64,000 bases of DNA from an uncultured Bacilli bacterium. GTDB lineage: Bacteria > Bacillota_I > Bacilli_A > RF39 > UBA660. Where the stretch lies: assembly GCA_934102355.1 (NCBI GenBank), contig CAKOSO010000001.1:229620-293619 (forward strand), written 5' to 3'. The position numbers were made by a program, and so were the translations under genes. Shown piece by piece: positions 14,641 to 15,480 of the stretch; position 1 is the stretch's first letter, and every line of letters begins with the position of its first letter. The notes under the pieces were generated by a model. It had not been told where the DNA came from, made no database searches, and saw only the letters and a list, made by a program, of their open reading frames with translations.

Positions 14641-14958
14641 CTATCCTATTCCACATGTTCCAATCATTCCCGGAATCAATCCCATTAACACATTAACAAC
14701 TGTCGGAACAAAAAATATAGCAACTGCTATAATTATTCTTTTAATAGCAGCCGACTGAGCTTTTTTCATATCTTCTTCTTTCCCAGCAGCTGATGCAGTC
14801 ATCAAATCTTTAATAACAAGTACAATTAACAATATCGGAACAACAATTCTTATTGCTGTAAATGCATCTTGTAACAAATTGTATATTGCACTTCCTTTTT
14901 GTATCAAACCATCCTTACAATCATCTAAAAACATTATAAGATTCATTATTTTACTCAT
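14641..14958 (-). CDS. small 2-TM membrane protein, putative T4SS pilin-like component (paralog 2)
   Basis: Start moved to the ATG at 14958 (MSKIMNLIMFLDDCKD), which is preceded by a GGAGGTCGG RBS. Core VPILLIVLVIKDL...AAGKEEDMKKAQSAAIKRIIIAVAIFFVPTVVNVLMG is paralogous to the 15079 and 48260 genes. Confidence 0.6.
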   Translation of the reverse strand: MSKIMNLIMFLDDCKDGLIQKGSAIYNLLQDAFTAIRIVVPILLIVLVIKDLMTASAAGKEEDMKKAQSAAIKRIIIAVAIFFVPTVVNVLMGLIPGMIGTCGIG

Positions 14959-14990
14959 AACCGACCTCCAAAAGTCCATACTATACAAAA

Positions 14991-14996
14991 ATTATA
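14991..14996 (-). promoter_or_regulatory. possible internal extended -10 (TGtTATAAT) promoter for paralog 2
   Basis: Minus-strand TGTTATAAT about 30 nt upstream of the RBS. The -35 is weak (TTGTTT). Confidence 0.3.
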
Positions 14997-15043
14997 ACAA
15001 AATAAGCAATTAAAAACAATACATTTTAAAAATAAATTAACAA

Positions 15044-15071
15044 TAAAAAAGGAACATCATAATGATATTCC
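15044..15071 (-). terminator. partial terminator/attenuator between the two tandem small genes
   Basis: Hairpin GGAACATCA-taa-TGATATTCC (8/9 bp) followed by a T-run on the minus strand, 8 nt after the stop of the 15079-15480 gene. Confidence 0.4.
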
Positions 15072-15078
15072 TAACAAT

Positions 15079-15480
15079 TTATTTTTTAGTTACTAATGTA
15101 CAAAGTTTACCACCTGGCTCAGTAGCACAAGCCCAACAATATGCAGAATCATCTTTTACATTTCCATTTTCATCGACTTGTTTTGTATCAACACCAATCA
15201 TTCCAAAAATCATTTGAACAAGTGTTACAACAAAGAAAATTAATACGCCATAAACAAGTCTTTTAATTAAAAGCTTTTGAGTAGCTTTAATTTCTTTTTC
15301 TTCTCCTGCCATTACAGCTTTTCCTAAATCTAGTAAAGCAAGCAATACAATAATTACTGGAATAGCTATTTTAAATACATTTATAACAACTCCTAATAAT
15401 TTCCAAATTTGAGCTGAGTCTTTACAAAAACTACTAGCATCAACTACAGGATCATCTAAAAAACTTATAATACTTAACAT
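15079..15480 (-). CDS. small 2-TM membrane protein, putative T4SS pilin-like component (paralog 1)
   Basis: 133 aa. MLSIISFLDD..., IAIPVIIVLLALLDLGKAVMAGEEKEIKATQKLLIKRLVYGVLIFFVVTLV, and a C-terminal CWAC...C tail. First gene of the operon. Confidence 0.6.
   Translation of the reverse strand: MLSIISFLDDPVVDASSFCKDSAQIWKLLGVVINVFKIAIPVIIVLLALLDLGKAVMAGEEKEIKATQKLLIKRLVYGVLIFFVVTLVQMIFGMIGVDTKQVDENGNVKDDSAYCWACATEPGGKLCTLVTKK

Follow-up and report, generated by a model that had tools for sequence, protein, structure and literature searches.

Two small paralogous genes, named pilA and pilB here, lie in tandem on the minus strand of a 64,000-nucleotide stretch of the genome of an uncultured Bacilli bacterium (lineage RF39, UBA660; assembly GCA_934102355.1, contig CAKOSO010000001.1), and this whole stretch is referred to below as the window. 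They stand ahead of a group of genes related to type IV secretion systems (T4SS), the coordinates of which are given in Table 1. The products, PilA and PilB, were 34% identical with 58% positives over 100 amino acids (aa) by BLASTP (E 2e-16), and the profiles of their two families aligned with a probability of 99.6% (E 1.7e-24). Database searches returned 265 relatives for PilA and 482 for PilB and synteny was kept in about 50 loci, which indicates that both are real genes.

A preliminary description of this DNA, made from its letters, had placed here a tandem of paralogous small proteins with two transmembrane (TM) segments at the head of an operon. The tandem was borne out by the BLASTP alignment, by hydropathy, which gave two TM-like hydrophobic segments in each protein, and by the two helices of each AlphaFold2 model described below, and the position at the head of an operon by the VirB6, VirB3, TrsD and VirB4 genes directly downstream and the tandem arrays kept in relatives. 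The motifs that it listed were present in the BLASTP alignment (FLDD near the N-terminus and I.I.VP..L.VL...DL..A..AG.E...K.Q...IKR....V.IFFV.T.V). Both open reading frames (ORFs) were found at the positions it gave, on the minus strand, except that the downstream gene more likely begins at an ATG at 14958. This ATG, seven bases past a GGAGG (14969-14965), is most likely the start of pilB rather than the TTG at 14988 that opens a 115-aa ORF, and public gene calls hold the identical 105-aa sequence.

The hairpin between pilA and pilB was the sole terminator-like site in the region 14400-16200, for which shuffled sequences gave 0.2. A possible extended -10 element (TGTTATAAT) serving pilB and the genes downstream was not reported by the promoter scan because its -35 hexamer is weak. 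The stop codon of pilB lies 10 nucleotides (nt) ahead of the VirB6 start codon.

Assignment to the T4SS_pilin family

PilB matched the Pfam family PF18895 (T4SS_pilin) with 33.2-33.4 bits against a gathering threshold of 26.6, over model positions 3-71 of 71, and the family that the preliminary description had felt unable to name from sequence therefore has a name. The same model was matched by 68 of the 82 members of the PilB family and, at E <= 0.01, by 15 of 37 PilA relatives. Nearly all weak secondary matches of the PilB family were to T4SS pilin or VirB6 models. These included PF04956 (TrbC/VirB2), weakly matched by 10 of 82 PilB relatives and 1 of 37 PilA relatives, and the NCBIfam models for VirB6-like MMCAP2_0566 (17 of 81 PilB relatives), pilin-like Mbov_0395 (7 of 81) and TrwL (3 of 81). 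Neither window protein matched PF04956 at E <= 0.1 or the Mbov_0395 model (NF045849, cut-off 40 bits), for which the best E value among the relatives was 3.2e-5.

AlphaFold2 predicted a helical hairpin for both proteins, with helices at residues 23-58 and 61-99 in PilA (mean predicted local distance difference test, pLDDT, 78) and at residues 19-58 and 61-94 in PilB (mean pLDDT about 78, block means 77-93 across the hairpin). With a threshold of E <= 1e-3, a HMMER scan of the family gave 10,093 cluster representatives, and a large N-terminal ectodomain before the C-terminal hairpin was common among them.

Many members were 250-600 aa long and featured a signal peptide, a large Cys-containing N-terminal ectodomain and the C-terminal pilin hairpin (P0190, P0198, P0213, P0251, P0257, P0262 and P0271-P0410), and in several cases shared an array with a short pilin (loci L036, L037, L040, L044, L075 and L079). 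Such members could represent minor subunits or tip subunits, or else be attached to the cell surface via a pilin-like hairpin.

A conserved array of pilin-like genes

A scan of species-representative genomes gave 183 matching stretches, of which the best 80 loci were kept; 85 loci were annotated with local hidden Markov models (HMMs). The record titles of the best 80 of the 183 were mostly those of uncultured Bacilli, 'Tenericutes' and 'Mycoplasma sp.' metagenome-assembled genomes from the gut, and about 12 of these 80 stood under other titles such as Muribaculaceae, Lachnospiraceae and Bacteroidaceae. One close cluster occurred on more than 900 contigs, one of them of about 1 Mb.

The recurrent module consisted of a divergent thioredoxin gene, one to five A-type pilins, one B-type pilin, VirB6, VirB3, TrsD and VirB4. 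Between one and six pilin genes preceded VirB6 in 51 related loci; 27 loci had two such genes, 17 had three, 3 had six and another 3 had a single one. In 45 of 50 loci a B-type gene was the last of the pilins, and no more than 24 nt separated the last pilin from VirB6, likewise in 45 of 50. In L038, L043 and L060 the pilB-VirB6 pair was duplicated as a unit. A terminator-like hairpin after the first pilin gene was present in 31 of 50 distinct loci compared with 6% of shuffles. The promoter of its own together with this conserved terminator-like site suggests that PilA is made in large excess over the core of the machine.

Sister clades carried a four-gene module upstream of the array, absent from the window, comprising a CpaB/RcpC-like gene, a VirB11/TadA-like T2SSE ATPase and two membrane proteins. 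In at least about ten loci this module and a single pilA-like gene stood alone beside addB/addA, with no VirB4 in the flanks. The loci concerned were L037, L042, L056, L061, L063, L069, L071, L073, L075 and L077-L079, and also L051, L053, L057, L064, L066, L067, L070, L072, L080 and L083 (e.g. L067:6239-10384). A VirB11/Tad-like ATPase may therefore be a further partner of this pilin family, either serving it or being served by it.

A CHAP cell-wall hydrolase, with or without M23, was located between pilA and pilB in the 'Mycoplasma sp. CAG:611' group (L001-L004, L008, L023, L039; e.g. L001:10444-12180) and would be VirB1-like. The window itself has a CHAP-domain ORF (48260-49258) and an M23 peptidase (21627-22511) elsewhere, with no hydrolase within the T4SS locus.

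T4SS genes downstream of the pilin-like genes

The VirB6-like protein was of the 'extended VirB6' kind, as residues 130-650 formed an ectodomain of about 520 aa with 16 cysteines. A Pfam scan of the whole protein gave no match within these residues, and the ectodomain might be an adhesin or a wall-spanning domain. The HMM of the PilB family aligned weakly and repeatedly to VirB6 residues 45-115 or thereabouts, in the N-terminal TM hairpin, across many loci (best domain E 1.3e-4), and the 17 weak PilB-family matches mentioned above fell at the equivalent positions (50-120) of a VirB6-like NCBIfam model of mycoplasma type, but hhalign of the pilin against the VirB6 hairpin gave a probability of only 6.8%. 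These alignments are no more than a hint at a pilin-like hairpin at the VirB6 N-terminus.

The small membrane protein encoded next was matched by the N-terminal part of the mycoplasma VirB4 model, which is VirB3-like. The TrsD-like gene, the product of which matched the N-terminal third of this model, overlaps the 595-aa ATPase gene by 4 nt and was a separate ORF in all related loci. Both the pGO1 subclass and Patescibacteria have TrsD, a remote homologue of the VirB4 N-terminus (PMC12102498). A frameshifted VirB4 pseudogene was considered and rejected, the N-terminal piece being a conserved separate TrsD-like gene.

The coupling protein gene lies about 12 kb upstream of pilA, alone between SpoVA genes (SpoVAC/AD/AEB) and trmD/rimM and with no adjoining relaxase. 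Its orthologue directly followed virB4 in 12 relatives (L006, L007, L011-L013, L020, L021, L025, L028, L031, L032, L034), and its separation from the T4SS locus here therefore appears to be due to rearrangement.

Two ORFs without a family match flank the T4SS genes, one of 141 aa (15568-15993, minus strand) and one of 230 aa (7475-8167, minus strand). In L033 several copies of their homologues stand between the thioredoxin gene and the pilins, and the two ORFs may therefore encode accessory components or substrates.

Table 1. Coordinates of the pilin-like genes, their T4SS partners and associated signals in the window
Feature	Position	Strand	Description
pilA	15079..15480	-	ORF, 133 aa; A-type, first pilin-like paralogue; two-helix membrane hairpin
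pilB	14641..14958	-	105 aa; B-type pilin-like paralogue; PF18895 match; ATG after GGAGG
Sigma-70-like promoter upstream of pilA	15511..15539	-	TTGACA-17 nt-TATATT; consensus scan, 11 of 12 matches; a consensus match only
Intrinsic-terminator-like hairpin between pilA and pilB	15040..15072	-	10-bp stem and 3-nt loop (15072-15050), then T-run
Possible extended -10 element for pilB and downstream genes	14991..14999	-	Read from sequence
VirB6/TrbL-like polytopic membrane protein	11190..14630	-	1146 aa; PF19597 TrbL_4 E 6.4e-9; NCBIfam MMCAP2_0566 and Mbov_0396
VirB3/TcpE-like small membrane protein	10848..11174	-	108 aa; weak TcpE match E 0.017; VirB4_plasma positions 3-93; conserved position
TrsD-like protein	10121..10897	-	258 aa; resembles VirB4 N-terminal part; NCBIfam VirB4_plasma positions 90-277, E 1.6e-11
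VirB4 ATPase	8337..10124	-	595 aa; VirB4_plasma E 4.9e-102; CD1110 family E 1.8e-46; phmmer against pAMbeta1 TraE E 1.7e-29
VirD4-like type IV coupling protein	27196..29322	-	PF02534 E 1.3e-54; NCBIfam conju_CD1115 310 bits, cut-off 250
Membrane-anchored thioredoxin-fold protein	16107..16553	+	CSHC motif; divergent from the pilins; Pfam TraF and Thioredoxin

Conserved cysteines and a divergent thioredoxin

PilA contained one cysteine in its N-tail (Cys19) and three in its C-tail (Cys115, Cys118 and Cys127, CWAC...C). In PilB a cysteine close to the N-terminus (Cys14) and one four residues from the end (Cys102) were both invariant in 81 sequences. Among 125 sequences of the PilB family, 99% had a Cys in both tails, with always exactly one in the C-tail, which was 2-4 residues from the end in 84%; the N-proximal Cys was 23-24 residues ahead of a conserved Pro. 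In the PilA family (133 sequences) 93% had one N-tail Cys exactly 22 residues ahead of the Pro and 92% had three C-tail cysteines in the pattern CWxCAT.P...C.

By a heuristic, 54% of the PilB family had a Sec-type signal peptide (e.g. ...PVYA/ESC...) ending 2-3 residues before the invariant N-proximal Cys, so that the mature protein of the PilB type would have a Cys at each end. Signal-peptide-like N-termini were predicted for 0% of the PilA family. The N-termini of the two window proteins were short non-signal leaders (MLSIISFLDDPVVDASSFC; MSKIMNLIMFLDDC). Conserved hydrophobic leaders of 7-31 residues (M..I..FLDD / M.DFI.N...L) preceded the invariant Cys in the window (14930-14958 and 15424-15480) and in many relatives, and such a leader occupied the exact site of the classical signal peptide in other family members.

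The loop between the helices was net positive in both proteins, with 6 K/R against 4 D/E, and the N-tail was acidic in PilA (1 K/R, 4 D/E) and neutral in PilB (3 and 3). The signal peptides, the N-terminal ectodomain fusions and the paired conserved cysteines together suggest a topology in which both tails are outside the cell.

The protein encoded divergently from the pilins had a TM anchor at residues 1-27 in the window copy and a single CxxC in 29 of 29 orthologues. It matched Pfam TraF with 28 bits (cut-off 23) and the NCBIfam F-type TrbB 'pilin assembly thiol-disulfide isomerase' with E 4.1e-6, below the cut-off. We propose that it may be the oxidase or isomerase for the extracellular cysteines of the pilins and VirB6. 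TrbB and TraF, which it resembles with NCBIfam scores below cut-offs, are a precedent for an extracytoplasmic disulfide enzyme dedicated to a T4SS, and unlike the F-type proteins it has a single TM anchor in a monoderm membrane. To our knowledge, F-pilin itself is not disulfide-bonded.

The best NCBIfam match of this thioredoxin was the PedC/BrcD bacteriocin-maturation family, again below the cut-off (E 2.6e-14, 53 bits against 120), and PilA combines a Cys-rich C-tail with a promoter and a terminator-like site of its own. These features would fit bacteriocin- or immunity-type peptides, secreted or membrane-active, that are matured by a PedC-like isomerase and lie near a T4SS by chance, a reading to which we give very little credence. 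Neither sequence has a double-glycine leader, and the scanned neighbouring ORFs were T4SS or housekeeping genes with no Pfam match to a C39-peptidase/ABC exporter or an immunity family, all three being components of a bacteriocin system with PedC-type maturation. Both proteins are two-TM hairpins of a T4SS pilin family, the VirB6/VirB3/VirB4 synteny is kept in about 50 loci, and the thioredoxin has matches to TrbB and TraF of F-type pilin assembly as well. No holin or bacteriocin-immunity family, which the preliminary description had given as examples of a refuting outcome, was found for either protein.

Chromosomal setting and host

The locus is flanked by housekeeping genes, UvrC, an RluD-like gene, LspA and MscL as well as RlmN and BacA, and the remaining scanned ORFs of the window were likewise related to housekeeping or sporulation (for example UvrC, LspA, MscL, RlmN, BacA, MutS, GyrA-like, GerA, ComEC, FtsW). 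SpoVA and GerA/GerAC/spore-permease genes were present in the window, as were a ComEC competence channel and a surface protein with a MucBP domain (25330-27181, 49364-53041, 58824-60896 and 53045-55195). The uncultured, low-GC host from the gut, one of the Bacilli, thus appears to be a walled and spore-forming member of the Bacillota, despite the 'Mycoplasma' and 'Tenericutes' labels on some relatives' records. A literature search on RF39 combined with type IV secretion gave no relevant paper.

A Bro-N protein and several unassigned ORFs occur downstream of the T4SS genes. Together with a G+C content slightly raised at 8-14 kb of the window, a VirB4 closest to the VirB4 model of a mycoplasma integrative conjugative element (ICE) and a coupling protein that meets the CD1115 conjugal-transfer cut-off, they could indicate that the genes are part of an ordinary ICE and that the two proteins are merely components of its mating channel, rather than of a domesticated chromosomal system. 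We consider this highly unlikely. No relaxase and no integrase were found among the 54 scanned ORFs of the window, and neither protein had a tblastn match at E <= 1 in a set of 72,556 plasmids. The housekeeping flanks and the setting of the coupling gene described above also argue against an ICE, and so does the recurrence of the module in 183 stretches of species-representative genomes within one lineage. In several relatives housekeeping genes, including a probable TruB, were likewise seen beyond the coupling protein, as read from the ORFs only, with no family-library scan.

Comparison with known systems

The chromosomal T4SS of Patescibacteria, for example Ca. Southlakia epibionticum, contains the same Pfam family PF18895 (PMC12102498; PMC12857230). 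Its divergent tandem paralogues form arrays of 2-11 genes, compared with 1-6 here, and its partners are the same, VirB6, VirB3, TrsD and VirB4, with a coupling protein that is often far from virB4 (PMC12102498). Like the window locus, with its 54 scanned ORFs, these systems are chromosomal with no relaxase nearby. The Patescibacteria hosts are ultrasmall epibionts whereas the host here is a spore-forming member of the Bacillota (Bacilli). The fixed terminal cysteines and the adjoining thioredoxin are seen here, and neither is mentioned in PMC12102498, which has 0 occurrences of the word 'thioredoxin'. Judging from gene content, the T4SS repertoire here is of the Patescibacteria type, with a PF18895 array, VirB6, VirB3, TrsD, VirB4, a distant coupling protein, a chromosomal location and no relaxase found.

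The TraB/TrsB proteins of pIP501, pAMbeta1 and pGO1 consist of about 100 aa with two antiparallel TM helices, the ends outside and the loop inside (PMC9083827). Their genes are placed early in the operon ahead of the VirB3-like, TrsD and VirB4 genes, as here, and their layout of signal peptide and hairpin is common to many PilB relatives. TraB belongs to another Pfam family, PF16943 (T4SS_CagC, 58 bits), to which the window proteins had no match. Unlike them, it is without a terminal Cys pair, is encoded in a single copy and is plasmid-borne beside a relaxase.

Classical VirB2/TrbC pilins have a long cleaved signal peptide and polymerise with phospholipid into an extracellular pilus, and their termini are processed or cyclised, TrbC and VirB2 being joined head to tail by a peptide bond. 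As at this locus, classical members of PF04956 such as Agrobacterium VirB2 and RP4 TrbC are small two-helix hairpins heading an operon with virB3 and virB4; the logic of a major subunit is shared, and a few members of the window family gave weak TrbC or TrwL matches. The window proteins differ in a longer loop of mixed charge, in having no signal peptide and in a monoderm host.

The mycoplasma ICE genes Mbov_0395 (pilin-like), Mbov_0396 (VirB6-like) and Mbov_0397 (VirB4) are in the same order (NF045849, NF045889, NF045975), and the window VirB4 was closest to the corresponding VirB4 model (Table 1). PilB weakly matched the N-terminal hairpin of Mbov_0396. All scores against these models were far below the curated cut-offs. 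The mycoplasma genes belong to mobile ICEs with transfer functions of their own, whereas the window locus lies within the core chromosome and encodes VirB3 and TrsD separately.

Proposed role of PilA and PilB

We propose that PilA and PilB are PF18895 members at the VirB2 position of a chromosomal, monoderm-type (MPF-FATA-like) T4SS, and we give this reading, including the topology, disulfides and stalk or short pilus set out below, a probability of about 0.6. It builds on the family membership, the helical hairpins, the conserved array with its order of genes, the terminator-like site that follows pilA, the abutment of pilB and virB6 and the fixed tail cysteines. The machine would be composed of VirB6, VirB3, TrsD, VirB4 and an unlinked VirD4-like coupling protein. 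Both pilin-like proteins would be inserted with their tails outside the cell and the charged loop inside, and the outer tails would be stapled by disulfides, two in PilA and one in PilB. The single bond in PilB would join both ends and give a near-cyclic topology, thereby mimicking the peptide-bond cyclisation of VirB2/TrbC. The divergently encoded, membrane-anchored CxxC thioredoxin would form these bonds. PilA, with its own promoter and terminator-like hairpin, would be overproduced as the major subunit, while PilB would be an adaptor or base subunit, produced at a ratio to VirB6 of about one to one. VirB4 would then extract subunits from the membrane and stack them on a VirB6 platform into a stalk or short pilus across the cell wall, and the substrate, DNA or protein, would be delivered via the coupling protein.

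A number of results weigh against this proposal. PilA itself had no PF18895 match and no Pfam match at all. The comparison with VirB2/TrbC, PrgF and TcpD that had been suggested along with the preliminary description gave no significant similarity by hhalign, with probabilities below 1% against a verified alignment of eight VirB2/TrbC sequences from plasmids, at most 1.1% for PrgF (pCF10) and at most 0.5% for TcpD (pCW3). A further comparison with TraB/TrsB (pAMbeta1) gave 1.4% and 0.2%. The likeness to PrgF and TcpD was in size and two-helix layout only. Searches with hhalign and HMMs against TcpE (pCW3) and against PrgG, PrgH and PrgI (pCF10) likewise gave nothing significant. When PDB chains were searched by sequence, using the two proteins as well as their family profiles, only noise such as G protein-coupled receptors and ion channels came back. 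The best PDB matches that Foldseek gave for the two AlphaFold2 models, none of them reaching E <= 0.001, were generic TM hairpins (HtrII) and ABC-transporter helices. These structure and PDB searches were uninformative because the two-helix fold is too simple to discriminate. A signal peptide, which is typical of VirB2 and for which a check had also been suggested, was absent from both window proteins. The N-terminal ectodomains of 150-500 aa in many relatives make a tight helical packing of every paralogue hard to reconcile. The thioredoxin was closest to a bacteriocin-maturation family, as mentioned above, and was divergent and adjoining the array in only 25 of 75 loci, including the window locus. 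The term pilin denotes family and position here, and pilus formation in these uncultured hosts is inferred.

The earlier likening of the two proteins to pilins is supported by PF18895, by their place at the head of the T4SS genes and by the arrays in relatives, and did not extend to a significant similarity to classical VirB2, TcpD, PrgF or TraB/TrsB. As there was no significant similarity to experimentally studied pilins, membership rests on PF18895, the fold, the position and the structure of the array.

PilA and PilB could alternatively be translocon subunits that do not polymerise. Like TraB/TrsB of pIP501, TcpD and PrgF, they would then bring in VirB6, VirB3, VirB4 and components of the cell wall or stabilise them, no pilus would be built, and pilin would be a family label only. 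Conjugative pili are unknown from Gram-positive T4SSs (PMC12857230). TraB of pIP501, which has the same architecture of a signal peptide and two TM helices with both ends outside, is essential for transfer, was present in membrane and wall fractions and pulled down mating-pair-formation proteins, and its authors proposed it to be a recruitment factor (PMC9083827). The tight coupling of pilB to VirB6, the weak and repeated matches of the PilB profile to the N-terminal hairpin of VirB6-like proteins and the large N-terminal ectodomains on many paralogues point in the same direction. However, a separate VirB3-like gene is present, the pilA promoter and conserved terminator-like site suggest a large excess of PilA, arrays of up to six divergent paralogues resemble known pilin arrays, and the family is PF18895 and not PF16943 (CagC/TraB). 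We therefore regard such a translocon role as possible and somewhat unlikely, and retain the pilin-like subunit of a stalk or short pilus as the preferred interpretation.

VirB2 and VirB5 were described in a December 2025 review as absent from Gram-positive T4SSs except those of Patescibacteria, which were considered unique among monoderms in their potential for conjugative pili (PMC12857230). A bolder proposal is that a lineage of Gram-positive, spore-forming gut Bacilli possesses a core-chromosomal, relaxase-less pilin-array T4SS of this same kind, which builds a wall-spanning pilus of disulfide-'cyclised' VirB2-like subunits oxidised by a dedicated extracellular thioredoxin, and that the Patescibacteria system and its pilins could have arisen from this lineage or from relatives of it. 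This is speculative and, in our judgement, unlikely to hold in full.

Since the proteins are caught by an existing Pfam model and analogous hairpin proteins (TraB, PrgF, Mbov_0395) occur in Firmicutes and Tenericutes, a known kind is extended here and no new one is defined. The point of interest is the occurrence of a Patescibacteria-like repertoire in spore-forming Bacilli. The same pilin family and set of partners is found in ordinary Bacillota, at no fewer than 50 such loci besides the window, which provides a wider set of organisms in which to ask if a monoderm T4SS can build a pilus. For the Patescibacteria system the Bacilli lineage is a candidate, as donor or as sister lineage. Terminal cysteines served by a thioredoxin of their own would, if confirmed, amount to pilin cyclisation in a disulfide form.

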